From the NCBI GenBank assembly GCA_965230415.1, contig CBDDKZ010000005.1:2415060-2479059 (forward strand): a DNA stretch of 64,000 bases, given 5' to 3'. A program made the translations under genes and the position numbers. Origin of the DNA: Cytophagales bacterium (lineage in GTDB: Bacteria > Bacteroidota > Bacteroidia > Cytophagales > JAAEPT01). The notes under the pieces were generated by a model, which saw only the letters and a program-made list of their open reading frames with translations, had not been told where the DNA came from and searched no databases. This document shows positions 24,786 to 42,876 of the stretch, piece after piece; position 1 is the stretch's first letter; every line of letters starts with the position of its first letter.

Positions 24786-25304
24786 ATGATTAAGAAACCT
24801 ATAAATTTTCGTAAGTGGATTGATGATAATCGCCATTTGTTGAAACCTCCTGTTGGGAATCAACAGGTATATTTACAGAATGATGATTTTATAGTTATGG
24901 TTGTTGGTGGCCCTAATAAAAGAAAAGACTATCATTATAACGAGGGGGAAGAACTGTTTTATCAGGTGGAAGGAGGTATTGTCTTGAAAATAATCGAAGA
25001 TGGCAAACCGGTCGATATTCCGATCAATGAAGGAGAAATGTTCTTGTTGCCTCCAAAAGTACCGCACTCTCCACAACGACCTGCGAATACTGTCGGTCTC
25101 GTCATAGAGCGGTATAGAAATGAGCACGAAAAAGACGGGTTTCAGTGGTATTGCGAAAATTGTAATCATAAACTATACGAAGAGTATTTCGAATTAACAG
25201 ATATTGTAAAACAACTTCCTGTAGTAATGGAGAAATATTATAATTCTAAAGCATTAAGGACATGTGATAATTGTGGGCATGTTATGGACGATCCGAGGAA
25301 TTGA
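24786..25304 (+). CDS. nbaC: 3-hydroxyanthranilate 3,4-dioxygenase
   Basis: 172-aa cupin with the HAAO motifs (HYNEGEELFYQVEGG, PPKVPHSPQR) and a C-terminal rubredoxin-like site (CENC...CDNCGH). Confidence 0.88.
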   Translation: MIKKPINFRKWIDDNRHLLKPPVGNQQVYLQNDDFIVMVVGGPNKRKDYHYNEGEELFYQVEGGIVLKIIEDGKPVDIPINEGEMFLLPPKVPHSPQRPANTVGLVIERYRNEHEKDGFQWYCENCNHKLYEEYFELTDIVKQLPVVMEKYYNSKALRTCDNCGHVMDDPRN

Positions 25305-26557
25305 TGGAGCTGGAAAAAGCAAATAGGTATGATCAGGAAGATGCGTTAAGCGACTTGAGGCAAGCGTTTTTTATCCCAAAAGTTGATGAGGAAGAGTTGG
25401 TGTACCTCAGCGGTAATTCCTTAGGGCTCCAGTGTAGAAGTACAAGTGAATTTGTTCAGGCTGAACTCGATGCATGGGCTAAGTACGGAGTAGAAGGGCA
25501 TTTTACTGGGGCAAAACCCTGGGTTAGCTATCATGAACAATTCTCAGTGCCACTGTCGCGCTTGACCGGCGCAAAACCAGTAGAGGTTGTTGCCATGAAT
25601 AGTTTGACAGTGAACCTGCATCTGGCTTTAAGCTCCTTTTACAAACCAAAAGGTAAAAAATCAAAAATCTTGATTGAAAGAAGTGCTTTTGGCTCTGACA
25701 TTTATGCAGTGAAATCACAGATAAAATGGCACGGGCTCAATCCGGAAGAAGAATTACTGTTTTTGGAGGAGGACAGTCAGCAACTGCTAAGTACGGTTCA
25801 CATTTGTGATGTCATTGCACGGTCCAAAGAAGAAATAGCATTAGTACTTTTAGGAGGAGTAAATTACCTAAGTGGGCAGTGTTATGAAATGGAAGAAATT
25901 GCTCGCTGTGCACACGAAAACGACTGTTTTTTTGGAGTAGACCTGGCTCATGCGATTGGTAATGTGCATGTTCCTCTTTCTTTAAATAAATGGGGGGTGG
26001 ATTTTGCTGTTTGGTGTAGTTATAAATACCTGAATTCGGGACCCGGTGGCGTAGGAGGGCTGTATATACACGAAAATCATCATGGGCAAGACCTTACACG
26101 CTTAGAAGGATGGTGGGGGACTCAACCGAAAAATCGTTTCAAAATGGGACCAGACTTTGATCCTATTCCCACTGTCGAAGCCTGGCAACTAAGCAATGCA
26201 CCTGTTTTATCAATGGCTGCTCTTGCGGCTTCTCTGGCCCTATTTGACAGTGTTGACCTCGAAGCTTTGCGCGCCAAGAGTATTCGTTTGACTACGATGC
26301 TCTTTGAAGGATTAAGCAACAATCCGAAAATTAAGATTATAACGCCACAGGATTTTGGACAGCGAGGAGCGCAATTATCTTTATTTATTCCGGGTACCGA
26401 TGAATCTCTGATTCGGGAATTAAGAAACAGAGGTGTAGTGGCCGACTGGCGGAGCTTTAGTAGCGGTGGTATTTTGAGAATGGCCCCTGTGCCTCTTTAT
26501 AATTCCTTTAGCGATGTAAAATATGCTGTGGAGTGTTTAAATGATCTGGTAAAATGA
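25304..26557 (+). CDS. kynU: Kynureninase
   Basis: PLP-dependent fold with a kynureninase-like N-terminus (LRQAFFIP, YLSGNSLG) and SGPGGVGGL. The start ATG overlaps the nbaC stop (TGATG). The listed ORF begins 33 nt earlier. Confidence 0.9.
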   Translation: MELEKANRYDQEDALSDLRQAFFIPKVDEEELVYLSGNSLGLQCRSTSEFVQAELDAWAKYGVEGHFTGAKPWVSYHEQFSVPLSRLTGAKPVEVVAMNSLTVNLHLALSSFYKPKGKKSKILIERSAFGSDIYAVKSQIKWHGLNPEEELLFLEEDSQQLLSTVHICDVIARSKEEIALVLLGGVNYLSGQCYEMEEIARCAHENDCFFGVDLAHAIGNVHVPLSLNKWGVDFAVWCSYKYLNSGPGGVGGLYIHENHHGQDLTRLEGWWGTQPKNRFKMGPDFDPIPTVEAWQLSNAPVLSMAALAASLALFDSVDLEALRAKSIRLTTMLFEGLSNNPKIKIITPQDFGQRGAQLSLFIPGTDESLIRELRNRGVVADWRSFSSGGILRMAPVPLYNSFSDVKYAVECLNDLVK

Positions 26558-27852
26558 AGCATGTTGGGATTATTGGCGCCGGACTCGTAGGAAGTTTATT
26601 GGCGAATTTGTTGAGTAAAAAAGGATTTCGTGTCACCCTTTTCGAGAAACGTTACAATCCACTGAAAACACAGGTTTATGCGGGTCGCTCTATAAATCTG
26701 GCATTGAGTGAACGCGGATTGAAGGCATTACGTTTGCTAGGGCTTGACCAGGAGCTCCTGAAACTGGCCATTCCAATGAAGGCGCGCGTAATTCATAGCC
26801 CTTCCGGTGAAATAAGCCTGCACCCTTATCATCCTGATGCAAAGGCTATCTATTCCATTTCGCGTGGTGAACTCAATTTGTACTTATTAAAAAAGCTCAA
26901 TCAGCAAGTTGCGTTAAAATTTAACCATGACCTTACTACCTGGGACTTTCAATCGGCGACCTTTAGTACTCCGCAGGGTATGTGCAGCTACGAACTCGAT
27001 TACCTGATTGGTTGCGACGGTGGTTTTTCGGCGGTGCGCGATTTTATAGAAAAAGATAATTTTGACCGTCGTCCACTTACACATAGTTATAAAGAGCTTG
27101 CCATTCCTCAGGATGCTTCGGGTAATTTGGTTTTTCCTAATGAAGGTCTGCATATCTGGCCGCGCAAAAGCTTTATGTTTATTGCACTTCCAAATTTAGA
27201 TAATACATTTACAGGAACACTTTTTTTAGCCAAAGAGGGAGCGCCTTCATTTAACTCCTTCAATGAATACGAAAAATTTGATACCTTTTTTAAAAAGGAG
27301 TTCCCTGATGCCTATAAGGTGATACCTGAGTTGGAAATGGAGTATTCCGCAAATCCTGTGTCGAGTTTGTCCACTACCATTACAAAAAAGTGGTCCAAAG
27401 GTAATACGATGGTGATAGGAGATGCGGCTCATGCAATTGTGCCTTTTTATGGCCAGGGGATGAACGCAGGTTTTGAAGATTGTTATATTTTAGATCAGAT
27501 GCTGGATAAATCAAACGGTCAGTTAACGCTTGTATTTGAAGAATTTGCTGCAAAGCGAAAGAAAGATGGCGTAGCTATTGCTGAAATGGCACTTGCGAAT
27601 TTTATTGAAATGCGCGACCTGATAACTGATCCTGCCTTTTTGCTGAAAAGAACTATAGACAATTACCTTTATGCGCATCATCCCGACAAATGGATGTCTC
27701 AATATGCGATGGTAACGTTTGAAGATGTAAGCTACAGCTATGCCTGGCAAAAGGGTAAAGAACAGGATGATTTATTAAATAATATTATAGCAAACTATGG
27801 CGAAGGCTGGCGTAATAACCTACAAGACATACGCACATATTTAGCGCTATGA
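26554..27852 (+). CDS. kmo: Kynurenine 3-monooxygenase (FAD-dependent)
   Basis: FAD-binding GIIGAGLVGSLLANLL is present, with a KMO-like C-terminus. The start overlaps the kynU stop (ATGA). Confidence 0.88.
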   Translation: MKHVGIIGAGLVGSLLANLLSKKGFRVTLFEKRYNPLKTQVYAGRSINLALSERGLKALRLLGLDQELLKLAIPMKARVIHSPSGEISLHPYHPDAKAIYSISRGELNLYLLKKLNQQVALKFNHDLTTWDFQSATFSTPQGMCSYELDYLIGCDGGFSAVRDFIEKDNFDRRPLTHSYKELAIPQDASGNLVFPNEGLHIWPRKSFMFIALPNLDNTFTGTLFLAKEGAPSFNSFNEYEKFDTFFKKEFPDAYKVIPELEMEYSANPVSSLSTTITKKWSKGNTMVIGDAAHAIVPFYGQGMNAGFEDCYILDQMLDKSNGQLTLVFEEFAAKRKKDGVAIAEMALANFIEMRDLITDPAFLLKRTIDNYLYAHHPDKWMSQYAMVTFEDVSYSYAWQKGKEQDDLLNNIIANYGEGWRNNLQDIRTYLAL

Positions 27853-27867
27853 GTGAATTTATTTCAA

Positions 27868-28644
27868 CTATTTTTTCTTTTTGAGCAGGCTTCTTAGTGC
27901 CTCCATTTCCTCTTCCAGTTTGTCAAGCCGCTGCTCCATTAAAGAGGCGGGTTCCAATTGTTTGGTGAAACGCCCTACCACAAGCCAGCATTCTTTAATT
28001 TCGGAATCATCGAATTTGAGCGTCTGAAAGTTATTATTGTCGGCCTGCCACTCAATGCTTTTTCCTTTGATACTGGCGCGACGGCATAATAGCTGCTTCT
28101 CTGTTATAAGGATATAAGACTGGTGGTTCTTAATCTTTTTGTAAGTGGTTTGCTCACCTATCAGGGTGTCGCCCTCCTGAATCCCGGCGTTTCCACTTGT
28201 CATGGCGGGGTCTATTATTTCAAAAGCACGGTGTTGTGGTGCGTGAAATGCTGACATGACAAGCCGAGGCTGTACTGCCATAAAGTCTTTGTTCTGAAAA
28301 TGTGTCAGGTATTCAATGACTTTGGCATTTTTGATATGGGCAATGCCTTCCTTAATCGTCTTTTTCGGTGTACTGGTCAATTGCTTCTTTCCGGCCTGAT
28401 CGATCTCTTTGAAAAGGTCGAAATGGTACAATTCATTGATAGTTAAGTCTTTGGTTAATAGCGTGTCAACCGATATGCCAAAATAATTGGCAATTTGAAT
28501 AATAGTGTCAACTTTGGGCTCGGCTCTTTCTTCTTCATAAGCACCCACACTGGTTCGGGATAGCTTAAATAGCTCTGAAAAAGCAGCTTGAGACAGTTTT
28601 TTAACTGTTCTGATCTTTTTTATATTTTTACCTATCAAAGACAT
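27868..28644 (-). CDS. XRE-family HTH transcriptional regulator fused to an S24 (LexA/CI-like) peptidase domain
   Basis: N-terminal HTH (IKKIRTVKKLSQAAFSELFKLSRTSVGAYEEERAEP) and a C-terminal S24-like beta-domain. It is transcribed divergently from the PspA-flotillin cluster. Confidence 0.75.
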   Translation of the reverse strand: MSLIGKNIKKIRTVKKLSQAAFSELFKLSRTSVGAYEEERAEPKVDTIIQIANYFGISVDTLLTKDLTINELYHFDLFKEIDQAGKKQLTSTPKKTIKEGIAHIKNAKVIEYLTHFQNKDFMAVQPRLVMSAFHAPQHRAFEIIDPAMTSGNAGIQEGDTLIGEQTTYKKIKNHQSYILITEKQLLCRRASIKGKSIEWQADNNNFQTLKFDDSEIKECWLVVGRFTKQLEPASLMEQRLDKLEEEMEALRSLLKKKK

Positions 28645-28866
28645 TTTTCGGAAATAATTGCCAATAATTTTGGAGTTTCTAATATTTTTGGTATAATTGT
28701 TGTATGGTATTTAAGTAAAGACAGCAATTATGAAGTATCAAACATACAATAGTCAACCTCCATAGCCAAAATAATTGGCGATAAGTATATGAAAAGTATT
28801 CGATTTAATTAAATTTACTACGAATCTTTTAAGGAGTTTTTCGACTACAATAAACAACAAAATAAA

Positions 28867-29259
28867 ATGAACGAACAATTCATCAAAGTTAGAGACTACG
28901 TCCTGGAACTGGGATATAACATTGCATCAGAGAGTGAAGAAGACGGTATCATCATCGTAGAAAACGAAGAAGCCGGTATTATTAATTTAGTATTATTGGT
29001 AGCAGATCCAATCCTACTTTTTGAGCAGTATTTGTTTGATGTACCGGCAGAATCAGCCAGCATATACAAAAGCCTTTTACAAAAGAACAGAGATATCATT
29101 CACGGAGCTTTCGTGTTGGATGAAACGGGCAATAGAGTGATTTTCAGAGATGCATTGCAACTTGAAAATTTAGACCTCAACGAAGTAGAAGGGTCATTCA
29201 ACTCACTTAAATTATTGCTTGGTGAGTATAGTGAAGAATTAATTGAGTTTTCAAAATAA
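28867..29259 (+). CDS. YbjN-like (putative sensory-transduction/chaperone-like) domain protein
   Basis: 130-aa acidic cytoplasmic protein whose pattern resembles the YbjN family. It is the first gene of the + strand cluster. Confidence 0.45.
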   Translation: MNEQFIKVRDYVLELGYNIASESEEDGIIIVENEEAGIINLVLLVADPILLFEQYLFDVPAESASIYKSLLQKNRDIIHGAFVLDETGNRVIFRDALQLENLDLNEVEGSFNSLKLLLGEYSEELIEFSK

Positions 29260-29270
29260 AAGTATTAAAC

Positions 29271-29996
29271 ATGAGTATTTTCAAAAGATTATTTAAAATA
29301 GGACAATCGGAGGCACATTCTGCTATCGATAAATTAGAAGATCCAATCAAATTAACCGAACAAGGTATCAGAGATCTTAAAAAAGACCTTGACAAAGCCT
29401 TACACGCTTTGGCAGAAGTGAAAGCGTTGGCAATACGTTCAAGAAACGAAGGTGAGACTGAATCGGCCAAGGCAAAAGATTACGAGAAAAAGGCCATGCT
29501 TTTATTGCAAAAAGCAGAAAAAGGGGAGATTGCTCCCGAAGATGCCGATCGTTTAGCCAGTGAAGCACTTGTTAAAAAGAGCGAAGCAGAGCAACAGGCT
29601 GCACGTGCAAAAGCCGATCAGGATAAATTTGACAAAAACGTCGCTCAGCTTGATGTAAACGTGAAGAGTTTGAGAACAAATATTTCCAAATACGAAAACG
29701 AATTACGTACGCTTAAGGCACGAGTGAAAGTAAGCGATGCCACTAAGAAAATCAATAAACAAATGGCTCAAATAGATGCTACCAGTACCGTTTCCATGTT
29801 GGAGCGTATGAAAGAAAAAGTAGCTCAGGAAGAAGCCTTAGCTGAATCTTATGGAGACATTGCCAATGAGAGCAAAAGTGTGGACGATGAGATCGATAAG
29901 GCCCTAAATACCGGAACAGCACAAACAGCTGCTTCAGACGACCTTGCGGCTCTTAAAGCCAAAATGGGTATTAACAAAAGCGACTCTGCTGAGTAA
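29271..29996 (+). CDS. pspA: PspA/IM30 (phage-shock protein A / Vipp1 / ESCRT-III-like) family protein
   Basis: 241 aa. The N-terminal amphipathic helix MSIFKRLFKIGQSEAHSAIDKLEDPIKLTEQGIRDLKKDL aligns with PspA [28 protein letters not shown]..., and a long coiled coil follows. Confidence 0.85.
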   Translation: MSIFKRLFKIGQSEAHSAIDKLEDPIKLTEQGIRDLKKDLDKALHALAEVKALAIRSRNEGETESAKAKDYEKKAMLLLQKAEKGEIAPEDADRLASEALVKKSEAEQQAARAKADQDKFDKNVAQLDVNVKSLRTNISKYENELRTLKARVKVSDATKKINKQMAQIDATSTVSMLERMKEKVAQEEALAESYGDIANESKSVDDEIDKALNTGTAQTAASDDLAALKAKMGINKSDSAE

Positions 29997-30095: not shown

Positions 30096-30788
30096 ATGAT
30101 TATATTATCTGTAAGCCAAGTTATTCAAGAATCCTTCTCTGCTGTAAATATTGTACCTACTACCATGCTCTGCCTGGCAGTGGTCTACTGGTTTACAGTA
30201 ATTTTAGGTGCACTGGATATGGGCTTTCTCGATTTTGATCTTGATGTGGATTATGAAGCTGACGTCGATATCCAGGTAGATGTAGATGCCGAAGTCAGTG
30301 CTGATGTAGATGGTGGTGCAGAGCCATCTATGTTTATTAAATTACTATCTTTCTTTAACCTGGGGAAAGTCCCTTTCATGGTGGTCTTCACAGCCGTTGC
30401 TATTCCTATGTGGTTTATAGCTACAACAACAAATAGCTGGTTAGGTATTCATCATCTAGGAATTGCATTACTGCTTACCATTCCTTATTTGTTTGTCAGT
30501 CTACTGCTTAGCAAAGTAGTAACACAGCCACTGGCAAAACTCTTTCACAAAATGGAAAAAGATGAAGTACATGATACAGATCTTATAGGTAAAATTTGCC
30601 GCGTAAAATATGGTATAAACGATGAACGAACCAGTCAGGCAGAAGTAGATTATGATGGACGTTCTTACCTTATTAATGCCAAGGCTACCAGTAATAAATC
30701 ACTAGCCAGGGGCGAAACAGGTCTACTCATCGATTACATCAAAGAAGATGATTATTACCTGGTAGAACCCTATGCTAACCCTACTTAA
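30096..30788 (+). CDS. NfeD-like / YqiJ-like inner-membrane protein (TM helices, acidic DxD repeat loop, C-terminal OB-fold)
   Basis: 230 aa with three or four TM segments, the loop DFDLDVDYEADVDIQVDVDAEVSADVDG, and a C-terminal NfeD-type beta domain (GKICRVKY...GETGLLIDY). It is immediately upstream of a flotillin, as in yqiJK. Confidence 0.6.
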   Translation: MIILSVSQVIQESFSAVNIVPTTMLCLAVVYWFTVILGALDMGFLDFDLDVDYEADVDIQVDVDAEVSADVDGGAEPSMFIKLLSFFNLGKVPFMVVFTAVAIPMWFIATTTNSWLGIHHLGIALLLTIPYLFVSLLLSKVVTQPLAKLFHKMEKDEVHDTDLIGKICRVKYGINDERTSQAEVDYDGRSYLINAKATSNKSLARGETGLLIDYIKEDDYYLVEPYANPT

Positions 30789-30863: not shown

Positions 30864-33122
30864 ATGATAACAAAAACTATGATATTAGTTGGCATTATTG
30901 TCTTTGTGTCAATTGGCCTAGCGGCCATGATACTCAAAATGTACAAGAAGGCCATTCAAGGTTTTGCATTAGTGCGAACTGGTTTCGGAAACACCAAGGT
31001 ATCCTTTAGCGGGCTATTTGTAGTACCAATTATCCATAAAATGGAAACAATGGATACCACCGTTAAAACCATTATGATTGAACGTTCCGGGAAGGACGGC
31101 CTTGTTTGTAAAGACAACATGCGCGCCGATATTAAAGTGACCTTTTTCGTGCGCGTAAATCCTACTACCGAAGCAGTGGCCAAAGTGGCTCAATCCCTTG
31201 GTTGTTCTCGTGCGTCCGATCAACGCGCCCTGGAAGATCTCTTCGATGCGAAATTTTCGGAGGCCCTTAAAACAGTCGGTAAGCATTTCGATTTCGTAGA
31301 GCTATACAACTCACGTGCCGCATTCAACGACCGGATTGTAGAAGAAATAGGTAAAGACCTCAATGGTTATGTGCTCGACGATTGTGCGATTGACTACCTG
31401 GAGCAAACACCGCTCAACAACCTGGATGAAAAGAATATCCTCGATGCGGTAGGTATCAAGAAAATTATTGAGCTTACCTCAGACGAAAAAATTAAGTCCA
31501 ACCTCATTGAGAAAGAAAAGGAAAAAGTAATCACAAAACAGAATGTGGAGGCTCGCGAAACGGTGCTTGAACTCGAAAAGCAACTTGCCGAAAAAGAGGC
31601 CAAGCAGAGGCGTGAGATCGAAACCATTCGTTATACAGAGAATGCCGAGATTGACCGGGTGAGAGAAGAGGAGCGTGAAAAAGCGGAGCGTGCACGCATA
31701 CAGGTGGAAGAAGAGCTTGAAGTGGCCGAACAGAATAAATTGCGACAGGTAATTGTTGCCAAAAAGAACAAGGAAAGAACCGATGCCATAGAAACGGAAC
31801 GTGTGTTGAAAGACAAGGAGCTTGAAGCTACCGAACGTCAACGGGTGGTAGAGCTTGCTCAGATTGAAAAAGAAAAGGCACTTGAAGAGGAGCGTAAAAA
31901 CATTCAGGATGTGATTCGCGAACGTGTGTCTGTAGAAAAGGCAGTGGTAGAAGAAGAAGAGAAAATCAAGGATACGAAGGCGATAGCTGAGGCAGATCGT
32001 GAGAAGACGGTCGCAATTACCAATGCCGAAATGGAGGCCGAAGAAGCTTTGGTAAAAGAGATCAAAGCTGCCGAGGCACGCAAACAAGCTGCCGAACACA
32101 ATGCACAACAAATGAACATCGTTGCCGAAGCGGAGCAACAAGCTTCCGTAAAACGTGCCGAGGCTAAAAAGATTATGGCCGAAGCAGCCGCAGCTGAGGT
32201 GGCTTCTCGTGGTATGGGTGAAGCACAGGTGATTGAAGCGAAGGCCGAGGCGATGCAGAAACAAGGTGAATCTGAGGCTCAGGTCATTGAAATGAAAGCA
32301 AGGGCAGAGGCCAAAGGCTATGAAGAGCAGGGTTTGAGTGAGGCTAAAGTGATACAAGAAAAAGCGGTTGCCATAGAAACACGCGGTAAATCGGAAGCAG
32401 CAGTTATCGCTGAGAAGCACGCCGCAGAAGCCAAAGGTATTGAACTTAAGGCTGTGTCGGAAGCTAAAGGCTTAGAAGAACAAGGGTTAAGCGAAGCCCG
32501 TGTCATTCAGGAAAAAGCATCGGCGGAAGAAGCTCGTGGTATGGCCGAAGCGAAAGTTACTCAGGAGAAACTCGCTGCAGAAGCCAAAGGTATCGAAGAG
32601 AAAGCGGAAGCGATGCAGAAACTCGATGGCGTTGGTCGTGAGCACGAAGAGTTTAAGCTACGCCTTGAAAAAGATAAGGAAATCGAGCTGGCGAAAATTA
32701 GTATACATGAGGTGGTTGCCCAAGCACAGGCGCAGGTAATTGCCGAAGGATTGAAAGCTGCCAAAATAGATATCGTAGGTGGTGAAACCATGTTCTTCGA
32801 TCAAATTGTAGGTTCTATCGCAAATGGTAAGAAAATTGATCGAATGGTCGATAACAGCCATGTACTGGAACAGGTAAAAGACACTTTCTTCGGTGGCGAC
32901 GGCAACAACGGCGATTTTAAAGAAAACCTGCGCAACTTTGTCGATCAGTTTGGTATTAGCATGCAAGATATTAAAGATCTCAGCGTAGCAAACCTACTGA
33001 ACAAAATGGCAGGTCAGACAACTGACAAGTCGATGCTCGCCAAAATTGGGCAGCTGCTCGGTGTTGCAAACCTGACAGGAGTAGCCGATAAAGGTATCGA
33101 CTCATTAGGTATCTTCAAATAA
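30864..33122 (+). CDS. Flotillin-like SPFH/band-7 protein (YqiK/FloA-like) with an extended Ala/Glu-rich coiled-coil repeat region
   Basis: 752 aa. An N-terminal TM helix and SPFH domain (ALVRTGFGNTKVSFSGLFVVPIIHKMETMDTTVKTI) are followed by about 400 aa of E/A/K-rich heptad repeats, then a conserved flotillin C-terminus. Confidence 0.85.
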   Translation: MITKTMILVGIIVFVSIGLAAMILKMYKKAIQGFALVRTGFGNTKVSFSGLFVVPIIHKMETMDTTVKTIMIERSGKDGLVCKDNMRADIKVTFFVRVNPTTEAVAKVAQSLGCSRASDQRALEDLFDAKFSEALKTVGKHFDFVELYNSRAAFNDRIVEEIGKDLNGYVLDDCAIDYLEQTPLNNLDEKNILDAVGIKKIIELTSDEKIKSNLIEKEKEKVITKQNVEARETVLELEKQLAEKEAKQRREIETIRYTENAEIDRVREEEREKAERARIQVEEELEVAEQNKLRQVIVAKKNKERTDAIETERVLKDKELEATERQRVVELAQIEKEKALEEERKNIQDVIRERVSVEKAVVEEEEKIKDTKAIAEADREKTVAITNAEMEAEEALVKEIKAAEARKQAAEHNAQQMNIVAEAEQQASVKRAEAKKIMAEAAAAEVASRGMGEAQVIEAKAEAMQKQGESEAQVIEMKARAEAKGYEEQGLSEAKVIQEKAVAIETRGKSEAAVIAEKHAAEAKGIELKAVSEAKGLEEQGLSEARVIQEKASAEEARGMAEAKVTQEKLAAEAKGIEEKAEAMQKLDGVGREHEEFKLRLEKDKEIELAKISIHEVVAQAQAQVIAEGLKAAKIDIVGGETMFFDQIVGSIANGKKIDRMVDNSHVLEQVKDTFFGGDGNNGDFKENLRNFVDQFGISMQDIKDLSVANLLNKMAGQTTDKSMLAKIGQLLGVANLTGVADKGIDSLGIFK
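32205..32625 (+). repeat. In-frame degenerate tandem repeats (about 20 codons each) encoding the E-A-K-V-I-Q-E-K-A coiled-coil units of the flotillin
   Basis: Repeated peptide units (...SEAQVIEMKARAEAKGYEEQGLSEAKVIQEKAVA..., ...GLEEQGLSEARVIQEKASAEEARG...). The matching nucleotide-level repeats explain the long antisense ORF at 31479..32420. Confidence 0.5.
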
Positions 33123-33292: not shown

Positions 33293-33853
33293 ATGAAAAA
33301 CTTAAAAGAATTTCCCAATACACCAAAAGACGTAACCGTGGAAGCAAAGAAAAATGGTTATGTATTTACCATTGATGAACGAAAACCCTTGTGGGCGCTG
33401 ATGCATTTTGCCTTATTTCTGTTTGCAATTGCTATAGTGGTCAACTGGGTACTGTCCGATGAATCTTTCCCTACCAGTCAGTTAATACTGATGAGCATTG
33501 CCTCTCTTTTTGGCTTATATGCCGGGTTTAGATTTGTGCACTTTTTTACCAAACGAACTATTGTGATTTTAAATGCAAATGAAATGATAAGTTATATCCG
33601 GTCGGTACTGAAATTTCAAAAAAGAAAAGTGGATTTAAGTGCTATAAAAGGAGTGCATATTACTCGGAAAACAGGGCAGGGAAGCGTAAGTGAAGTTGGG
33701 GCCGAGAGAAATTATATACGAGAAATCCTGGAAGTAGATTTAGGGACTCGTCGTTTTGCATTAGCGAAAGATGCGTCGTCTCATGCGCGTTATTTTCTCA
33801 AAGCCAGCCTCAATAATTACAGATATCGAAACAATCAACAACTAGCGGCTTAA
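33293..33853 (+). CDS. Small membrane protein (two TM helices plus a cytoplasmic domain, possibly bacterial PH-like)
   Basis: 186 aa. It has a hydrophobic hairpin (LWALMHFALFLFAIAIVVNWVL ... LILMSIASLFGLYAGF) and a basic cytoplasmic tail. Its stop lies 7 nt before the giant ORF. Confidence 0.5.
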   Translation: MKNLKEFPNTPKDVTVEAKKNGYVFTIDERKPLWALMHFALFLFAIAIVVNWVLSDESFPTSQLILMSIASLFGLYAGFRFVHFFTKRTIVILNANEMISYIRSVLKFQKRKVDLSAIKGVHITRKTGQGSVSEVGAERNYIREILEVDLGTRRFALAKDASSHARYFLKASLNNYRYRNNQQLAA

Positions 33854-33859
33854 TTAACT

Positions 33860-36800
33860 ATGCAGGAACACCAAGATAAAGAAATAAAACTGGAAGGAGA
33901 TACCTATGAGGTGCTTCGCGGACGATTACTCAAACATATTGACGATTTACAAAAACGTCTTGGTAATTTAAATAAAGCGAGAAAAGAAGTCTTTGGTTCT
34001 ATAGAGACCAGCCTCTTATCTACAGAGCGCATTACCACCGGAAATAACTGTGTTTCCAGGGACATGATACCCATAGGGAATTCTTTTATTCTTGGTTATA
34101 ATGTGCATATTGGACTACGCATGGAAACTAATATTGCCGATGTTTTCAGCATTTATAAATATGAAAACCATCAGTTTCATGCGCAGGATCTTACACTCGT
34201 TAATGACGCCCGGTTTGAAGAAGACTTCAAAAATCTTTATAAATACTACAAACAAACAGAGTTTGTGAAGTTTGCACGTGTCGGTACGTTTTTATACATG
34301 GTGTTTCGTATTGGTAAGAGTGTGAACGATATTAAGGTTTTTAAATGGGCGATTAATGAGGACAAGCTCGTTTATGTAGATGCGCGAAGTGAACACGAAT
34401 TCAAGTATCCGGAACAGCATCAATTTGAATGGAAACGTGTAACCCGGGACATGCAGCGCGACGGGGCTAATGCACATTTTAGTATTGAAGATTTGGTCTT
34501 TGTCGAAACAATTGGTGGCGACCTTACTATTAAAGTCGAAGATAACACTGACACGGGACAGGGTATTTATAGCGAGCCTGTTGAACAAGCCGATCAAACA
34601 CTCGATGATGCTGAAATACATTATGCCATTCTGGGTAACATTATCCTGCTAAAAGTTAAGCCCTATCAGGAACGTGATTTCAGGTATATCGTATTTAACT
34701 CAAAAATTCAGGAAGCAAGGCGCATAGACGCCATAGAAAATGCCTGCGTTCTACTACCAGATGATCACGGGCTCATATTTCCCGACGGCTATTACCTGCA
34801 AACGGGAGAATTCAAATTATTCGATCACGACCTGAAAGACCTTCTTTATGAACGTCGTCTCCTGTCTCCGAATGGAGAAGACTACTTGTATGTATTTTTC
34901 AACAGAGCAGAAGGAATCTACTTGTTACTGTCTTATAACTTAATAGAGCAAACAGTCGATACTCCTGTGATCTGTTCGGGTTATTCCATTTTTGAAAATG
35001 GAGAGATGTGCTATTTCAAATCGGATGGAGAACCTAAAAAGCACCATATAGTGCAAATTTGGCAAACCCCTTACGTAGGGCCTGATTATGAAATTCAGTC
35101 TGTAAAAGATGACTTTTTATATAAAATAGGAAATAAAGACATCGTGAGAGCTATGGCGGGATGTCATGAAATAATGTACCTCATGCACAAAGGGGAAGGT
35201 TATGCCGGGCTGTATTTGGAGATCATGAAAAAGTCGAGCGACTTGTTAGATACCTACTATTGGTTGGATAAAGAAGAAACCTATGAATTGCAGATACCTA
35301 TTCTGGCTATCAAAGAAACAGCATCACTGGCAATCGATGAGTATGAGAAAGTCCGGAATATTAAAAGTAGTACGCGTCAGCAACTAAATTTAGTTAAGCA
35401 AAAGAAAGAAGACCTTACCAAGCAGATAGGTAGGCAGAAACCGAAGTCGGTCAATGAATTTGTGAAGTACCTGGCCGACTTACGTATACTTCGTGGAGAG
35501 ACAATTTCGCTTAAAGAGTTGCGCTACATAAACCTGGAAAGTGTTGAGTCGCTGGAAGCGGAAATTGAAGCTATCAACGATGAGATGGCGCGCGACTGTG
35601 TTAAGTACCTCGTCAAAAAAGAATCGTTAAACCCTTATGAGCAAAGAGTTCGTGACATCGAAGCATCGATTGATGGCCTTAAGAAAGTAGTTGATGCCAA
35701 CAAAGTAGAGGAGCAGATCGACCAGACTTCATTAGAGCTGGAAATGCTTATCGAAATAGTGAGTAATTTGAAGATAGAAGATGCCACGCAAACAACCCAA
35801 ATAATAGATCATATATCGGCCATTTATTCGAGCTTTAACCAAATCAAAGTGGCGCTTAAACGAAAGCGCAAAGATTTATTGGCAGTAGAAGGAACAGCGG
35901 AGTTTAATGCACAAATTAAACTAATAAGTCAGGGGCTTATTAACTACCTCGACATGGTTACTACTCCAGAGAAATGTGACGAGTTTTTGGCGAAGCTGAT
36001 GGTACAGCTGGAGGAATTGGAAGGTAAATTTGCCGAGTTTGATGACTTTATCGAAAAAATTTCTTTGAAACGTGAAGAGATTTATAGCGCTTTTGAAAGT
36101 AAAAAAGTAGCACTGTTGGAGGCGCGAAACAAAAGGGCTAATACCTTACAGGCCTCTGCCGATCGTATTATAAAAGCCAGCCAGGGACGGGCGTCCAAAT
36201 TCGATTCTGTAAATGAAATCAATGGTTACTTCGCTGCCGATATCATGATCGAAAAGGCACGAAATATAATTGATGAGCTTATAGAAATGGGTGATACGGT
36301 TAAAGCTGATGACATCCAAAGTAGGCTCAAGACTGTAAAAGAAGAAGCAATAAGGCAACTAAAAGACAAAAGTGAGCTCTTTGTCGACGGCGAAAACACC
36401 ATTAAACTGGGTAATTATTCCTTTTTGGTGAACACACAGGCGCTGCAATTAACAATCGTCAATAAAGACGATGACCTGTATTTCCATTTAACCGGCACCA
36501 ACTTTTTCGAACTCATTCGCGATCAGAAAATGAATGACTATCAGCGTTTTTGGGATAGGCCACTGGTGTCTGAAAGCAAAGAAGTTTACAGAGCAGAATA
36601 TTTGGCCTATAAGTTTTGGCATTATATTAATAATGCGGAGTCCGATACGCGCCAAAAAGGGGAAGAGATCGCTTTGATGTCTCTTGAGCATATACAGGAG
36701 CAGGTTTCAGAATTTATGGCTCAGCGCTTTGATGAAGGTTATGTCAAAGGTGTTCACGATTACGATGCATCGCTTATCTTCAGCAAGCTCAATGCGATGG

Positions 36801-39385
36801 TTCACGGAACCGATCTGTTACGTTTTAGCTCTTCAGCAAGAGCAATGGCGGCTTATTTTTGGCAGGTATGGCTGGATGAAGACTTGCAAGCAGACCTTGA
36901 AAAGCGTTTAAAAGGTGCAGGTATGATTCTTAAAGTTTTTCCAAAAACCAAAGAGTTTCATGGTCTCAAGCTGGAACTGGTGCAAGCTATAAGCAATTTT
37001 CAGAAAGAGTCAGGCCTGTTTAGTGATGAATTAGTAGAAGAAGCAGGAGCCTATTTATTTATTGAAAAATCGAGGGGAGACCACTTTATTATCGATGGGG
37101 AGGCAGAAGTATTGTATAAAGGATTTCTTGAATTCCTCAAAAAATCTAAATCCCACAGTGGTTTTCGAACTTCCGTCGATGGTTTAAACAAGTCGGCTGC
37201 CTTTAAATTGATTTTGAGCTGGTTACATGCTTATGAAGAGCAACAGGAGCAAACGTTTAAACCTTACCTGGAAGAAGCGGCATTATTGATTCTAAATGAA
37301 AATTATGTGGCCAATCATGTGCTGCGCACTAGTCTTAAATCAAAAATAAGTGATTTGAGGGGGGCTCACAGCAGTATAAAAGAACAACAGTTCAATTTTG
37401 ATCTCAATGAATTTATGCTCCGTTTGCACCATTTTGACTCTTATGAAGTTCCTGCTTATAGAGATTATACCATTTATAAAAAGAAGCTTGCGGAGCAGTT
37501 TAGCGATGAGTTACGATTGGGAGAGTTTAAACCACAAGTCATGAATTCATTCGTCCGTAACGAGTTGATAAATAAGGTTTATTTGTCATTGATAGGTGCA
37601 AATTTGGCCAAACAAATTGGTGCCGCTGGAGAGGGGAAAAGAACCGATTTAATGGGGATGTTATTACTGGTTTCACCTCCAGGTTATGGTAAGACCACTT
37701 TGATGGAATATGTGGCCAATCGATTGGGGCTTATTTTTATGAAAATAAATGGTCCGGCTATAGGTCACGAAGTTACATCAGTAGATCCTGCTCAAGCTAC
37801 AAATGCCAGTTCGAGGGAGGAACTTGAAAAATTGAATCTTGCCTTTGAAATGGGTGACAATGTGATGATCTATGTGGATGATATTCAGCATACGAATCCG
37901 GAGTTTCTGCAAAAGTTTATTTCCCTTTGTGATGCACAACGCAAGATTGAAGGTGTTTACAAGGGACGAAGTAAAACCTACGACTTCAAAGGAAAAAAGG
38001 TGTGTGTGGTAATGGCGGGTAATCCGTATACAGAAAGTGGTGCCCGTTTTCAAATTCCTGATATGCTGGCCAACCGTGCCGATATTTACAATCTTGGTGA
38101 TATCATCGGTGATCAGGCCGATGTATTTAAGCTAAGTTATATTCAAAACTGCGCTACCTCAAATGCCGTTTTGAGCCAACTTGCGGGAAAAAGCCAAAAA
38201 GATGTGCTTACCTTAATAAAAGTGGCCGAAACCGGCAATCGAGATGAACTTTCATTTGAAGCGAACCATGCTGTAGAGGAAATTAATGAGTATGTGTCTG
38301 TTCTTGGCAAGATATTAAAAGTGCGTGATGTCGTGCTTAAAGTAAACGAGCAGTATATTCTCTCAGCAGGACAGGCTGAAGAATATCGAACCGAACCTGC
38401 TTTTAAGCTACAGGGGTCATACCGTAATATGAATAAAATTGCAGAAAAGATTGTGCCGGTAATGAACGATGCAGAGCTGGACGTACTTATTGATTCACAT
38501 TACGAAAATGAAGCACAAACCCTTACTAAAGGTGCTGAGGCCAATTTGTTGAAATTCAAGGAAATGATAGGTGCGCTCTCCGATGAGGATGCTGAGCGTT
38601 GGGAACAAATCAGGCAAACATTTCAAAGAAATAATAAATTGAAAGGGCTCGGTGGTAATGAGATGGGGCATGTACTTGCTCAAATGGAGTCTATAACAGA
38701 AGGGCTTTTTGGGATTAAACAAGCCTTGTCACCAACTGTTGGCGATAATGTGCCTGCTAAGGTAAATACGCTGCCTGCCAAAGAGCAGGTAGCGCCGCAA
38801 GCTGCTGTTACGAATAGTGGAAATGATTGGAAACAATATGGAGACAGACTCGATGAAGTGCTGAGAGCTTTGGCAGACAATCAGTCTAAAATCATCACAG
38901 AACTGAGGTTGCAGCAAAAAACAGATCGCGCATTGCTCGATGCCGAAAATGAGCGTGAACGCCTGGCAAAAGAAGAACAAAAACGCCAACAAGAACTAGT
39001 GGCCAAAGCAAAAAAGAAGAAAGAAGAGGAAGTACGCCAAATGCGTGAGCAGGTGGAGGTAGCAGTGATGGAGAAAGGTTTTTTGGAAGAAGATGGCAAT
39101 GCTTATATCACATTTAAGTTTGCTTTTCAGAGCAAAGTTGAAGAAGTTATAACAGCCTTTACCGGCATGCTTGAGTTCAAGGATCAGTTCGAGAGTCCAA
39201 TACACTCCATTAATATATCATATGAGGATGGTATCCAGCCCAACGAATTGATTACATGGCCTGCTCAAATATTCTATAATCAATTTTTGGAGAAAGACAT
39301 TGCACTAAGAGAACTAAATCTGGAACAGCTGAGAGTGACCTGGGTTCCGCAGAAAGTGATGCTCGGAAAACAAGCTAGTAAGTAA
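33860..39385 (+). CDS. Giant (1841 aa) cytoplasmic protein with an embedded MoxR/AAA_5-like P-loop ATPase module and a C-terminal coiled coil
   Basis: One uninterrupted ORF with no TM helix or signal peptide. Walker A LLLVSPPGYGKTTL is near aa 1276 (nt about 37684). Walker B MIYVDDIQH is near aa 1340. A sensor-1-like CVVMAGNPYTESG and an Arg-containing segment FQIPDMLANRADIY (compare MoxR ATQNP..LPEAQLDRF) follow. A basic/acidic coiled coil KRQQELVAKAKKKKEEEVRQMREQ lies near the C-terminus. Confidence 0.8.
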   Translation: MQEHQDKEIKLEGDTYEVLRGRLLKHIDDLQKRLGNLNKARKEVFGSIETSLLSTERITTGNNCVSRDMIPIGNSFILGYNVHIGLRMETNIADVFSIYKYENHQFHAQDLTLVNDARFEEDFKNLYKYYKQTEFVKFARVGTFLYMVFRIGKSVNDIKVFKWAINEDKLVYVDARSEHEFKYPEQHQFEWKRVTRDMQRDGANAHFSIEDLVFVETIGGDLTIKVEDNTDTGQGIYSEPVEQADQTLDDAEIHYAILGNIILLKVKPYQERDFRYIVFNSKIQEARRIDAIENACVLLPDDHGLIFPDGYYLQTGEFKLFDHDLKDLLYERRLLSPNGEDYLYVFFNRAEGIYLLLSYNLIEQTVDTPVICSGYSIFENGEMCYFKSDGEPKKHHIVQIWQTPYVGPDYEIQSVKDDFLYKIGNKDIVRAMAGCHEIMYLMHKGEGYAGLYLEIMKKSSDLLDTYYWLDKEETYELQIPILAIKETASLAIDEYEKVRNIKSSTRQQLNLVKQKKEDLTKQIGRQKPKSVNEFVKYLADLRILRGETISLKELRYINLESVESLEAEIEAINDEMARDCVKYLVKKESLNPYEQRVRDIEASIDGLKKVVDANKVEEQIDQTSLELEMLIEIVSNLKIEDATQTTQIIDHISAIYSSFNQIKVALKRKRKDLLAVEGTAEFNAQIKLISQGLINYLDMVTTPEKCDEFLAKLMVQLEELEGKFAEFDDFIEKISLKREEIYSAFESKKVALLEARNKRANTLQASADRIIKASQGRASKFDSVNEINGYFAADIMIEKARNIIDELIEMGDTVKADDIQSRLKTVKEEAIRQLKDKSELFVDGENTIKLGNYSFLVNTQALQLTIVNKDDDLYFHLTGTNFFELIRDQKMNDYQRFWDRPLVSESKEVYRAEYLAYKFWHYINNAESDTRQKGEEIALMSLEHIQEQVSEFMAQRFDEGYVKGVHDYDASLIFSKLNAMVHGTDLLRFSSSARAMAAYFWQVWLDEDLQADLEKRLKGAGMILKVFPKTKEFHGLKLELVQAISNFQKESGLFSDELVEEAGAYLFIEKSRGDHFIIDGEAEVLYKGFLEFLKKSKSHSGFRTSVDGLNKSAAFKLILSWLHAYEEQQEQTFKPYLEEAALLILNENYVANHVLRTSLKSKISDLRGAHSSIKEQQFNFDLNEFMLRLHHFDSYEVPAYRDYTIYKKKLAEQFSDELRLGEFKPQVMNSFVRNELINKVYLSLIGANLAKQIGAAGEGKRTDLMGMLLLVSPPGYGKTTLMEYVANRLGLIFMKINGPAIGHEVTSVDPAQATNASSREELEKLNLAFEMGDNVMIYVDDIQHTNPEFLQKFISLCDAQRKIEGVYKGRSKTYDFKGKKVCVVMAGNPYTESGARFQIPDMLANRADIYNLGDIIGDQADVFKLSYIQNCATSNAVLSQLAGKSQKDVLTLIKVAETGNRDELSFEANHAVEEINEYVSVLGKILKVRDVVLKVNEQYILSAGQAEEYRTEPAFKLQGSYRNMNKIAEKIVPVMNDAELDVLIDSHYENEAQTLTKGAEANLLKFKEMIGALSDEDAERWEQIRQTFQRNNKLKGLGGNEMGHVLAQMESITEGLFGIKQALSPTVGDNVPAKVNTLPAKEQVAPQAAVTNSGNDWKQYGDRLDEVLRALADNQSKIITELRLQQKTDRALLDAENERERLAKEEQKRQQELVAKAKKKKEEEVRQMREQVEVAVMEKGFLEEDGNAYITFKFAFQSKVEEVITAFTGMLEFKDQFESPIHSINISYEDGIQPNELITWPAQIFYNQFLEKDIALRELNLEQLRVTWVPQKVMLGKQASK

Positions 39386-40929: not shown

Positions 40930-42876
40930 ATGAAAAAGCTATTATTGGCTATAGGATTTACTATATGCCTTAATTTAACTTCAGCTTATGCCACTACCCC
41001 GCATAGTGAGCAAAAATTTAAAGCTTCTTGTGACGAGACCGGCCCTAATGGCGAGTATACAATTGCCCTGCAGGAAAATGCCAGCGAACTTGTTATAGAC
41101 TGGGATGCCCTTATAAGTAATGCCGGAAATGGCTTTACCTATCTGGATTACTGGGTGAACGGTTCTTATAAGGGATCATACCCCGCATCGATAAATTATG
41201 ATGAGCGTATATTCGGTATAAACAACATTAGTGATGGCGATGTTATAGAATTCTTTTTTAAATATGATCGTCCTGGAGGTCAGTACATTGGCTCCAGAAA
41301 TGATCACAGACACGTATTCGGAAGTTGCACAGCAGATCAGGACGCTGATGGAGATGGCTTTACTGCCGACGAAGACTGTGATGATAATGATGCTTCTGTT
41401 AATCCTGATGCCGTTGAAATTTGCGATGGTATTGATAATAACTGCGACGGTCAAATAGACGAAGGTTTGCTTTCGGAGTTTTTTGTGGACGAAGACGGCG
41501 ATGGATATGGTGATACCGACCAACCTGTAATGGCTTGCGAATTAGGCGACGGTTTAGCATCGGTAGGTGGAGATTGCCAGGATCGTGACAGTAAAGTGAA
41601 TCCGGGAGCAGAGGAACGTTGCGATGGCTTTGATAACAACTGTGATGGTCAGATTGACGAATCGGGAGATCCTAAAACATGGTATGCCGATAATGATTTT
41701 GATGGATACGGAGATCCTGACAATTCAGAGTTTACCTGTAGACCTCCATCTCAATTCCATATTACATTTGGAGGTGATTGCGATGATAACAATAATTCAA
41801 TTAATCCGGGAGCATCGGAAGTTTGTGATGAACTGGATAATGATTGTAATGACCAAATTGATGATGGTTTGCCAACACAAACGTTTTATGCAGATGAAGA
41901 CGGAGACGGCTTTGGTAAATCTGATGATGTAGGGGCGGTGCAGTCTTGTCTGCCGGAATTAGACGGTCATGTTTTAAACGATGATGATTGTAATGATGCT
42001 TCTGCCGCTATAAACCCTGATGCAGAAGAAGTTTGTGATGAGCTGGATAACAATTGCGATGGTCAAATAGATGAAGGTGTACAAACACAGTTTTGGATAG
42101 ATGAAGACCGTGATGGTTGGGGTGGCTCTGACCAATGGGTATGGGCTTGTGAAAATCCGTCTACCACTGGTTCATTGGTAGATCGAACTGGTGATTGCAA
42201 TGATGACAATGAATTTATTAATCCGGATATGGATGAAATTCTTGGAAATGGAATTGATGATAATTGTAATGGTGAAGTTGACGAAGGTAGCGATTGTGTA
42301 GTGGAGAACCCAAATGGCGAATACACACTCACTTTTTCAGAACTTGGCAATTTGTTAATTATTGACTGGGATGCACTTATTCCAAATGCCGGTAATGGCT
42401 TTACCTATCTTGATTATTGGGTAAATGGTACTTATCAGGGATCTTATCCGGCTACTGTTAACTATGCTGACCGCGTTTTTGGTATTAATAATTTAAATAT
42501 GGGAGATGTAGTAGAGTTTTTCTTTAAGTATGATCGTCCTGGAGGTCAATATATCGGAGTACAGGGTGATCATACATATACTATGGGGAGTTGTGTTCCG
42601 AACGTTGCGAAAAATAGGTGGGAAGAAGGTTTTGTAGAGGACTTGACTAATACCAGACTTTGGCCTAACCCTGTAACTGAAGTATTATATGTTGAAACTG
42701 ATTCGAAATTGATTAGTAACATATCAATAATCAGCAATACAGGAGTAGAGAGTATAATGGAAACTATCAACTCAGTAGCTGCTTCAGTTGATGTGAGTGC
42801 ACTTCCGGAAGGAGTTTATACAGTAAAAGTTGAAACAAATTTCGGAGTTCACATGGCGAAATTTGTCAAGCAGTAA
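40930..42876 (+). CDS. T9SS-secreted cargo protein with five Cys/Asp-rich 'putative metal-binding motif' repeats between two copies of a duplicated ~95-aa domain, and a C-terminal Por sorting domain
   Basis: Signal peptide present. The domain NGEYT...IDWDALI.NAGNGFTYLDYWVNG.Y.GSYPA..NY..R.FGINN...GDV.EFFFKYDRPGGQYIG occurs at aa about 40-130 and again at about 460-550. Between them are five repeats of D.DGDG.G..D....C....D.CDDN...VNP.A.E.CDG.DNNCDGQIDEG. The C-terminus LWPNPVTEVLYVE...YTVKVETNFGVHMAKFV resembles the T9SS CTD. Confidence 0.75.
   Translation: MKKLLLAIGFTICLNLTSAYATTPHSEQKFKASCDETGPNGEYTIALQENASELVIDWDALISNAGNGFTYLDYWVNGSYKGSYPASINYDERIFGINNISDGDVIEFFFKYDRPGGQYIGSRNDHRHVFGSCTADQDADGDGFTADEDCDDNDASVNPDAVEICDGIDNNCDGQIDEGLLSEFFVDEDGDGYGDTDQPVMACELGDGLASVGGDCQDRDSKVNPGAEERCDGFDNNCDGQIDESGDPKTWYADNDFDGYGDPDNSEFTCRPPSQFHITFGGDCDDNNNSINPGASEVCDELDNDCNDQIDDGLPTQTFYADEDGDGFGKSDDVGAVQSCLPELDGHVLNDDDCNDASAAINPDAEEVCDELDNNCDGQIDEGVQTQFWIDEDRDGWGGSDQWVWACENPSTTGSLVDRTGDCNDDNEFINPDMDEILGNGIDDNCNGEVDEGSDCVVENPNGEYTLTFSELGNLLIIDWDALIPNAGNGFTYLDYWVNGTYQGSYPATVNYADRVFGINNLNMGDVVEFFFKYDRPGGQYIGVQGDHTYTMGSCVPNVAKNRWEEGFVEDLTNTRLWPNPVTEVLYVETDSKLISNISIISNTGVESIMETINSVAASVDVSALPEGVYTVKVETNFGVHMAKFVKQ

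Follow-up and report, generated by a model that had tools for sequence, protein, structure and literature searches.

The window analysed here is a 64,000-nucleotide stretch of contig CBDDKZ010000005.1 in the Cytophagales bacterium assembly GCA_965230415.1. At positions 33860..39385 of its forward strand lies a gene whose product is a soluble AAA+ ATPase of giant size and belongs to the DUF3686 family; the Pfam families DUF3686, DUF7902, AAA and AAA_5 match it. The open reading frame (ORF), which an earlier note on this DNA had read with the same coordinates and length, is unbroken and starts with ATG. Its coordinates include the stop codon, and it codes for 1841 amino acids (aa) or ~210 kDa. 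The gene is the last of a co-directional cluster that encodes, in this order, a CesT/Tir-type protein, PspA, a YqiJ-like protein, a flotillin, a 186-aa ORF and the ATPase, and a regulator is encoded divergently ahead of it. The cluster is a conserved envelope-stress operon, and the window gene does not stand out within the widespread DUF3686 family, of which it is a new member with a minor lineage-specific C-terminal variant.

Family membership and distribution

The profile PF12458 (DUF3686) matches aa 29-467 over its whole length (profile positions 1-448 of 448; E=5.5e-190, 632.1 bits against a cut-off of 25), and PF25472 (DUF7902) matches aa 589-671 (E=2.3e-28, 98.7 bits). At E<=1e-5, a collection of 5.8 billion proteins contains at least 5,627 homologues. 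With these numbers, the description of the protein as an orphan in the earlier note has to be given up. Among the best 120 of the homologues, identity lies between 55 and 61%, and all 120 have the same Pfam set as the window protein. Most of these 120 are named "DNA repair ATPase" and some "AAA family ATPase" or "MoxR-like ATPase". Species-representative genomes hold at least 585 confirmed relatives, from which 80 loci were kept as the synteny sample; conservation was calculated on 76 full-length orthologues. The 80 loci belong to Bacteroidota, Planctomycetota, Verrucomicrobiota, Desulfobacterota, Clostridia, Kiritimatiellota and Omnitrophota, and their ATPases are 46-61% identical to that of the window over ~1,620 residues. 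By tblastn, matches at 35-42% identity are also found in plasmid records of Pseudomonas, Proteus, Vibrio, Photobacterium, Halomonas, Streptomyces, Nonomuraea and Deinococcus. These are 13 of 72,556 plasmid records, mostly megaplasmids or chromids, and no match is found in 50,697 phage records. A fusion artefact of two genes, already thought improbable in the earlier note, is ruled out, since the architecture is continuous and unchanged in the 76 orthologues, which come from many phyla.

Domain architecture and conservation

AlphaFold2 models calculated on a 96-sequence alignment have a mean predicted local distance difference test score (pLDDT) of 83.8 for aa 1-1200 and of 82.3 for aa 1150-1841. 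The N-terminal region under DUF3686 (33944..35260) is modelled as a helix (aa 13-45) followed by a beta-propeller (aa 51-402) of ~26 strands in six or seven blades, with pLDDT mostly 85-93, and the beta-rich N-terminal region read earlier from the sequence is thus real. It is followed by a predicted helical stalk or bundle at aa 468-838 (35261..36373) that holds DUF7902. The long helices of the model span aa 419-838, ~420 aa in all, with single helices of up to 58 residues. A small beta domain (aa 847-885) and an all-helical domain (aa 911-1146) are predicted next (36398..37297), and strands and helices at aa 1160-1255 run into the ATPase. The AAA+ alpha/beta core occupies aa 1256-1415 (37625..38104). 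The lid and a post-AAA helical domain (aa 1416-1625; 38105..38734) are modelled as helices with pLDDT 81-97 and contain a conserved EYRTEPxFKLQGSYRNM segment. The remainder (38735..39382) is a lineage-specific C-terminal extension, modelled as linker, coiled coil and beta-sandwich.

Structure prediction, which had been proposed as a way to name the terminal folds, finds the propeller and the C-terminal beta-sandwich; the relatives that Foldseek returns for the N-terminal 1,200-aa model are only generic propellers (Elp1, clathrin terminal domain, CyRPA, PON1, prolyl oligopeptidases) or proteins that combine a propeller with helices. They are matched at E ~1e-5 with a TM-score of ~0.1 against the whole query, and no specific structural homologue of the stalk or of the helical domain is found in this search. 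Column conservation peaks in the ATPase core (0.82-0.89), amounts to 0.6-0.78 in the propeller, is lowest within the family core at aa 920-1200 (0.34-0.46) and collapses beyond ~aa 1625. The highest 19-residue Kyte-Doolittle mean of the protein is 0.96. This is too low for a transmembrane helix anywhere in the chain, and the ATPase is therefore soluble.

Motifs and class of the AAA+ module

All nucleotide-binding motifs quoted in the earlier note are present in the translation. Walker A, LLLVSPPGYGKTTL, lies at aa 1268-1281 with the core string SPPGYGKTT. The P-loop SPPGYGKT corresponds to aa 1272-1279 (37673-37696), in which Ser1272 replaces the first P-loop glycine; this serine is fixed in every alignment that we made of the family. 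Walker B, VMIYVDDIQH, lies at aa 1335-1344 with the acidic pair D1340 and D1341 (37877-37882). The Walker B-like pattern hhhhD[DE] occurs at aa 1336-1341, 60 residues after Walker A, and as a stray match at aa 490. The sensor-1 region reads CVVMAGNP within CVVMAGNPYTESG, with N1388 as its asparagine, and an arginine-finger candidate, R1406, is located within IPDMLANRADIYNLG; the whole stretch from sensor-1 to the arginine finger is NPYTESGARFQIPDMLANR. Candidates for sensor-2 in the lid region are R1510 or R1522. Walker A, Walker B, sensor-1 and arginine finger thus follow one another on an alpha/beta core with a helical lid, which places the module in the AAA+ superfamily. The Walker A lysine and threonine, the Walker B acidic pair, the sensor-1 asparagine and R1406 are near-invariant among the orthologues.

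Pfam detects a single AAA+ module per chain; its AAA match spans aa 1268-1348 and its AAA_5 match aa 1268-1391. AAA_5 (PF07728) passes marginally, with 24.5-25.4 bits against a cut-off of 22 over profile positions 2-125 of 139. AAA (PF00004) scores higher, at 29.7-32.5 bits, but covers profile positions 1-73 only. On the core, AAA, RuvB_N, AAA_22 and AAA_5 all score 23-32 bits, and NCBIfam gives weak RuvB matches only. The AAA_3 (PF07726) and CbbQ_C profiles do not match aa 1201-1640 even at E<=1. Hence the profile searches proposed earlier agree on AAA and AAA_5 and do not turn the P-loop into one of the ABC or SMC type, while AAA_3 is missing. Searches of PDB sequences, both with the single protein and with a 96-sequence profile, do not assign an AAA+ clade: only ~40-85 residues around Walker A align, with p97, RuvB and Rpt3. 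Judged by these scores, sequence profiles alone cannot discriminate the AAA+ subclasses for this core.

The nearest solved structures to the core model are NorQ (PDB 9qh4) and CbbQ (PDB 6l1q), but their sequence identity to the window ATPase is only 12-16%. Behind them in the structure comparison stand Skd3 and midasin (13.1), ClpA and dynein (12.7) and McrB (11.2). By Foldseek E-value, RuvB and NorQ are on a par (5e-6 to 1e-5); in the target-normalised TM-score over full-length chains, NorQ is highest with 0.56-0.63, compared with 0.37-0.43 for RuvB. In the model, two strands (aa 1362-1367 and 1370-1375, pLDDT ~76-82) form a beta-hairpin that directly precedes the sensor-1 strand. This modelled hairpin places the core in the pre-sensor-1-hairpin superclade and excludes the classic, clamp-loader and initiator clades. 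On the models, MoxR/AAA_5-type is the best available description of the appearance of the core.

MoxR ATPases use a separate VWA protein as their partner-binding adaptor. Pfam detects no VWA gene in the operon, and none is conserved nearby in the 80 loci, in line with the absence of a VWA partner noted earlier; a MoxR gene is likewise not found among the fetched loci. Membership in the MoxR family is not established, because there is no AAA_3 or CbbQ_C match, no helix-2 hairpin in the model and no VWA partner gene, Walker B carries Asp-Asp, and the protein has ~6 times the size of MoxR. The same features separate it from NorQ and CbbQ, compared to which the module is embedded in a protein ~6 times larger. 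Of the earlier assignment as MoxR/AAA_5 type, the AAA+ class, the marginal AAA_5 match and the modelled pre-sensor-1 hairpin stand, and the MoxR membership does not.

The variable C-terminus

After a predicted disordered linker (aa 1626-1657), the model contains a charged coiled-coil helix of 72 residues (aa 1658-1729; 26% Lys/Arg, 22% Asp/Glu) and a beta-sandwich of ~105 aa (aa 1732-1836, pLDDT 92-96, in the region aa 1730-1841, 39047-39382). They correspond to the charged coiled coil and the C-terminal domain of ~100 aa that the earlier note had placed behind the ATPase. The last ~190 residues are shared by only five of the best 120 homologues (P0001-P0005, 1822-1848 aa). In the same position, other relatives carry TPR repeats (L014, L037, L038), ankyrin repeats (L016), polybasic tails (L021, L028) or long helical repeats (L055). 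Since different lineages have different modules after ~aa 1625, the C-terminus is best described as a variable adaptor slot.

A search with the beta-sandwich region finds 457 representative clusters at E<=1e-3, and 64 of these reach E<=1e-10. The carriers are mostly proteins of ~220 aa whose N-termini are of the signal, lipobox-like or transmembrane kind, with a similar charged helix ahead of the domain. Among the best 150 matches, 102 have a hydrophobic N-terminus and 53 a lipobox-like motif, and one protein with several hydrophobic segments (P0121) contains two copies of the domain. No Pfam family matches the beta-sandwich, and a search of the rest of the window and of the related loci finds no paralogue of it. 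Together with the preceding charged helix, it is apparently an undescribed mobile module. A topological mismatch is observed here: the domain is typical of small anchored or secreted proteins, yet it is fused to a cytoplasmic ATPase.

The flotillin operon

The flotillin gene (30864..33122, forward strand) encodes a YqiK-type protein of 752 aa with an N-terminal transmembrane segment, an SPFH/Band_7 domain and a long Ala/Glu-rich coiled coil. Band_7 matches aa 32-169 in a search with the N-terminal fragment (E=9e-13), and BLASTP aligns the protein to Escherichia coli YqiK with 31% identity over 441 aa (E=1e-44). It is unusually long compared with the 553 aa of E. coli YqiK, the excess being a repetitive Ala/Glu/Lys-rich coiled coil at ~aa 440-580. 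The full-length protein gives no Pfam, NCBIfam or PDB match, because its repetitive composition suppresses them. Directly before it lies the gene for a YqiJ/YuaF-like (NfeD-type) membrane protein of 230 aa (30096..30788, forward strand), recognized by a weak YqiJ_N match (E=0.0014) and by BLASTP to E. coli YqiJ (E=0.001). PDB sequence searches with the flotillin and the YqiJ-like protein are empty. In 52 of the 80 loci, the YqiJ-like gene directly precedes flotillin; the gap between the two has a median of 13 nucleotides (nt).

Across the synteny sample, flotillin stands immediately upstream of the ATPase on the same strand in 69 of 80 loci. In six of the 11 loci without it, the sequence ahead of the ATPase is shorter than 300 nt; this leaves 74 informative loci, and the pairing holds in 69 of these 74. 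It extends over at least nine phyla, with a median flotillin-to-ATPase gap of 124 nt. The commonest gene orders are YqiJ-flotillin-ATPase (27 loci) and, behind a divergent regulator, CesT-PspA-YqiJ-flotillin-ATPase (17 loci). In Bacteroidota, the flotillin-ATPase pair is accompanied by YqiJ-like, PspA and CesT/Tir genes. Downstream of the ATPase, no conserved gene is found in the 80 loci. The same operon is present in the nearest relatives with the C-terminal extension (P0001, locus L083, and P0003, locus L082). The pair also occurs on a Streptomyces linear plasmid. On the Pseudomonas fluorescens SBW25 megaplasmid pQBR103 (L084, 85452-104608), it is joined to a yjfJ-type PspA cluster with PspA, rhomboid, DUF2491, DUF350, DUF1190 and a glutathionylspermidine-synthase-like gene, and the link to PspA therefore recurs outside Bacteroidota.

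The PspA/IM30 gene of the window (29271..29996, forward strand) codes for a bacterial ESCRT-III-type protein of 241 aa (PspA_IM30, E=2.5e-43). PspA is found in 22 of the 80 loci, in addition to the pQBR103 operon. Upstream of it lies the gene for a CesT/Tir-type (YbjN-like) chaperone-fold protein of 130 aa (28867..29259, forward strand; CesT_Tir_1, E=1.1e-51), which is kept in this position in ~20 loci. The divergent gene (27868..28644, reverse strand) encodes an HTH_XRE and Peptidase_S24 regulator of the LexA/CI-like autocleaving repressor type (HTH_19 E=2.3e-11; HTH_3; Peptidase_S24 E=4.6e-6), and 21 related loci have a homologue of it that is likewise encoded divergently at this place. In and beside the promoter region between this gene and CesT/Tir, the 13-mer CCAAWWWWWTTGG occurs three times (28478, 28661 and 28766; 28478..28778). 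These are its only matches in the whole 64 kb, where 0.19 are expected, and none of 100 shuffled sequences reached three. We regard the copies as candidate operators of the S24-type repressor; as an exact pattern, the 13-mer is not conserved in other genera. Scans for sigma-70 promoters and terminators perform no better than on shuffled sequence, with a consensus that may not suit the host, and the Rfam scan of the window yields one tRNA only.

Between flotillin and ATPase, the 186-aa ORF (33293..33853, forward strand) contains two hydrophobic segments and stops 6 nt before the ATPase start. It has no Pfam, NCBIfam or PADLOC match and no homologue in the 80 loci. A flotillin-ATPase gap of more than 300 nt exists in 24 other loci, mostly with unrelated small ORFs, and in the closest relatives the slot holds a GIY-YIG ORF (L082) or nothing.

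The earlier note had called the context of the ATPase unusual. The conservation of the operon across loci contradicts this, and exactly this operon was catalogued computationally by Ravi et al. 2024 (mSystems, PMC11237479), who proposed roles in sub-membrane dynamics and found abbreviated flotillin-YqiJ(-ATPase) operons to be more widespread. Table S3 of that paper lists the Dokdonia donghaensis entry ANH61663.1 including the divergent 'cHTH+Protease' gene. Gene content and order are identical to those of the window, including the divergent regulator, and the ATPase, a 'beta-propeller + coiled-coil + AAA+ ATPase' in the published operon, has the same domain architecture. In contrast to the published operon, the window ATPase has the C-terminal coiled coil and beta-sandwich, present among the best 120 homologues only in a few Cytophagales-like relatives, and the window adds the unique 186-aa membrane ORF before the ATPase.

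Further genes lie outside the operon. Beyond the regulator, the window has a kynurenine/NAD-pathway-like trio at 24786-27852 (3-hydroxyanthranilate dioxygenase, 3-HAO, E=1.7e-64; kynureninase; an FAD-dependent monooxygenase). In this place, L082 and L083 have a polyamine-linked cluster of AdoMet decarboxylase, DUF4178 and a spermine-synthase-like gene, with DUF350 in L082. Downstream of the ATPase, a 648-aa protein (40930-42876) contains five MopE-type putative metal-binding repeats and a type IX secretion system C-terminal sorting domain, the latter in keeping with Bacteroidota as the origin. Its N- and C-terminal halves are internally duplicated, and the second half has a weak CBM_56-like match.

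Discussion

We see an even chance that the ATPase is a ring-forming remodelling motor that acts on flotillin/PspA membrane scaffolds during membrane stress. Midasin and dynein, the giant AAA_5 proteins, concatenate six AAA modules per chain, whereas the window ATPase has one, so that any ring must be homo-oligomeric. Assembly of the AAA+ modules into such a ring is hinted at by the invariant arginine finger R1406, and the ring could work as a MoxR-style remodelling motor. Propeller, stalk and variable C-terminal module would supply the adaptor in cis and replace the VWA protein. The motor may be recruited to a cytoplasmic flotillin (SPFH) dome that is held by the YqiJ/NfeD protein, where it would spend ATP on the assembly, opening or dismantling of flotillin scaffolds and, in loci that have PspA, of PspA scaffolds. 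We infer this action on scaffolds wholly from domains, motifs and synteny, which are themselves observed. The suggestion in the earlier note to look for interaction with flotillin and PspA was well aimed.

The proposal could draw on two analogies, Vps4 acting on ESCRT-III and FtsH paired with HflK/C. Membrane-attached domes are known to be formed by SPFH proteins, and the AAA+ protease FtsH is the partner of HflK/C, which makes a partnership of SPFH and AAA+ proteins plausible by analogy. HflK/C-FtsH, QmcA-YbbJ and YqiK-YqiJ resemble the window operon in the functional grouping of SPFH scaffold, NfeD-type and AAA+ genes, and the window flotillin is a YqiK homologue. However, FtsH is a membrane-anchored protease of the classic AAA clade, while the window ATPase is soluble and MoxR-like, has no protease domain and is linked by gene order only. 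The likeness to Vps4/ESCRT-III is that genes for an AAA+ protein, for PspA as a member of the ESCRT-III superfamily and for a membrane scaffold occur together, and the logic that we propose is a scaffold turnover driven by ATP. Vps4, in contrast, is a classic-clade AAA protein with an MIT domain, which we do not detect in the window ATPase, and PspA is present in a subset of loci only, whereas flotillin is nearly constant.

Several observations speak against a scaffold-remodelling motor of the MoxR kind. Walker B is invariably Asp-Asp and not Asp-Glu across the aligned family members, so that ATP may be hydrolysed slowly or in the manner of a switch. No aromatic residue occurs in the pore-loop region (GPAIGHEV), and substrate threading is therefore not indicated. 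In place of a helix-2 insert, aa 1298-1315 appear as a short helix and loop with pLDDT ~89, although this is seen in the model only. Five loci (L001, L008, L017, L037, L044) truly have no adjacent flotillin gene, and physical contact of the ATPase with flotillin or PspA is deduced from gene order only. In the literature, we find no experimental work on any family member and one comparative-genomics mention only; the searchable library returned no paper on DUF3686, PF12458, DUF7902 or "DNA repair ATPase" together with SPFH/flotillin.

A more specific proposal is possible, and we hold it only tentatively. The DUF3686 ATPase could be the missing ATP-driven regulator of flotillin assemblies, as a megadalton homo-hexameric MoxR-like ring that docks on the dome. 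Docking would proceed via the propeller, the stalk and the lineage-specific C-terminal adaptors, and the dome would be opened or dismantled, with membrane repair together with PspA/ESCRT-III. The idea of an ATP-driven flotillin regulator is hinted at in Ravi et al. 2024 (PMC11237479).

Alternatively, flotillin may only localise the ATPase, whose substrates would be other membrane clients, for example unfolded or misassembled proteins in microdomains, on which it would act like a chaperone or disaggregase. On present data, this cannot be told apart from the remodelling of the scaffold itself. The lack of an aromatic pore loop weighs against it as well, and the neighbourhood shows no conserved client gene, so that we regard it as unlikely.

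The hypervariable C-terminal repeat modules and the small-ORF slot are reminiscent of defence NTPases, and the gene is found on some megaplasmids. Weak PADLOC matches to mad8 (E=8e-4) and TRIP13 (E=7e-3) point in the same direction, to an NTPase of an anti-phage or abortive-infection system that would sense infection through its variable C-terminal module and act at the membrane. The matches in PADLOC-DB v2 are, however, generic AAA+ similarity, and the neighbouring genes have none save coiled-coil noise for PspA. With a core that is 46-61% identical across phyla and a fixed synteny, the family is unlike patchy, fast-evolving defence genes. The absence of phage matches, the few plasmid records, mostly of megaplasmids or chromids, and the absence of a conserved effector alongside (nuclease, TIR domain or pore-former) further make a role in defence quite improbable.

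The name given in NCBI and UniRef, and the Pfam description of DUF3686 as "ATPase involved in DNA repair", would make the protein a DNA repair ATPase of the SMC/RecN/SbcC-like coiled-coil type. The LexA-like XRE-S24 regulator encoded divergently, the polybasic tails of some relatives and weak RuvB_N matches (26-29 bits over the Walker A region) could be read in its favour. Yet the P-loop module is AAA+ and not ABC/SMC: Walker A, Walker B, sensor-1 and arginine finger are contiguous, with Walker B 60 residues past the P-loop, there is no split ABC-type head, and no SMC, RecN or SbcC profile matches. The similarity to RuvB is confined to ~45-55 residues around Walker A, profile scans detect no DNA-binding or nuclease domain, and the neighbours are membrane-stress genes in at least nine phyla. 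The name finds no support in the papers found, and the label "DNA repair" appears to stem solely from the Pfam family title, with no support from domains or neighbourhood. We consider such a function very improbable. Equally hard to credit is a canonical MoxR chaperone whose VWA/MIDAS partner is encoded at another locus and which would insert metal cofactors or activate enzymes, like NorQ/NorD and CbbQ/CbbO: NorQ and CbbQ are the nearest solved structures and NPYTESGARFQIPDMLANR resembles the MoxR motif given in the earlier note, but AAA_3, CbbQ_C and a VWA gene are missing as described, ~1,250 extra residues precede the module, and the conserved partner is flotillin and not a metalloenzyme.

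In the build-up and turnover of bacterial flotillin assemblies, the DUF3686 ATPase is the obvious candidate for the component that consumes energy. To the published description of the gene neighbourhood, the present analysis adds the assignment to a MoxR-like motor class without VWA partner, the domain map and the variable C-terminal adaptor slot, as well as the lack of support for the database name "DNA repair ATPase". If the ATPase were indeed the regulator of flotillin assemblies, bacteria would possess in it an equivalent of Vps4 or NSF that serves SPFH scaffolds. The copy in this Cytophagales genome itself adds little that is new, and it is the DUF3686 family as a whole that is a good experimental target for the regulation of flotillin scaffolds.

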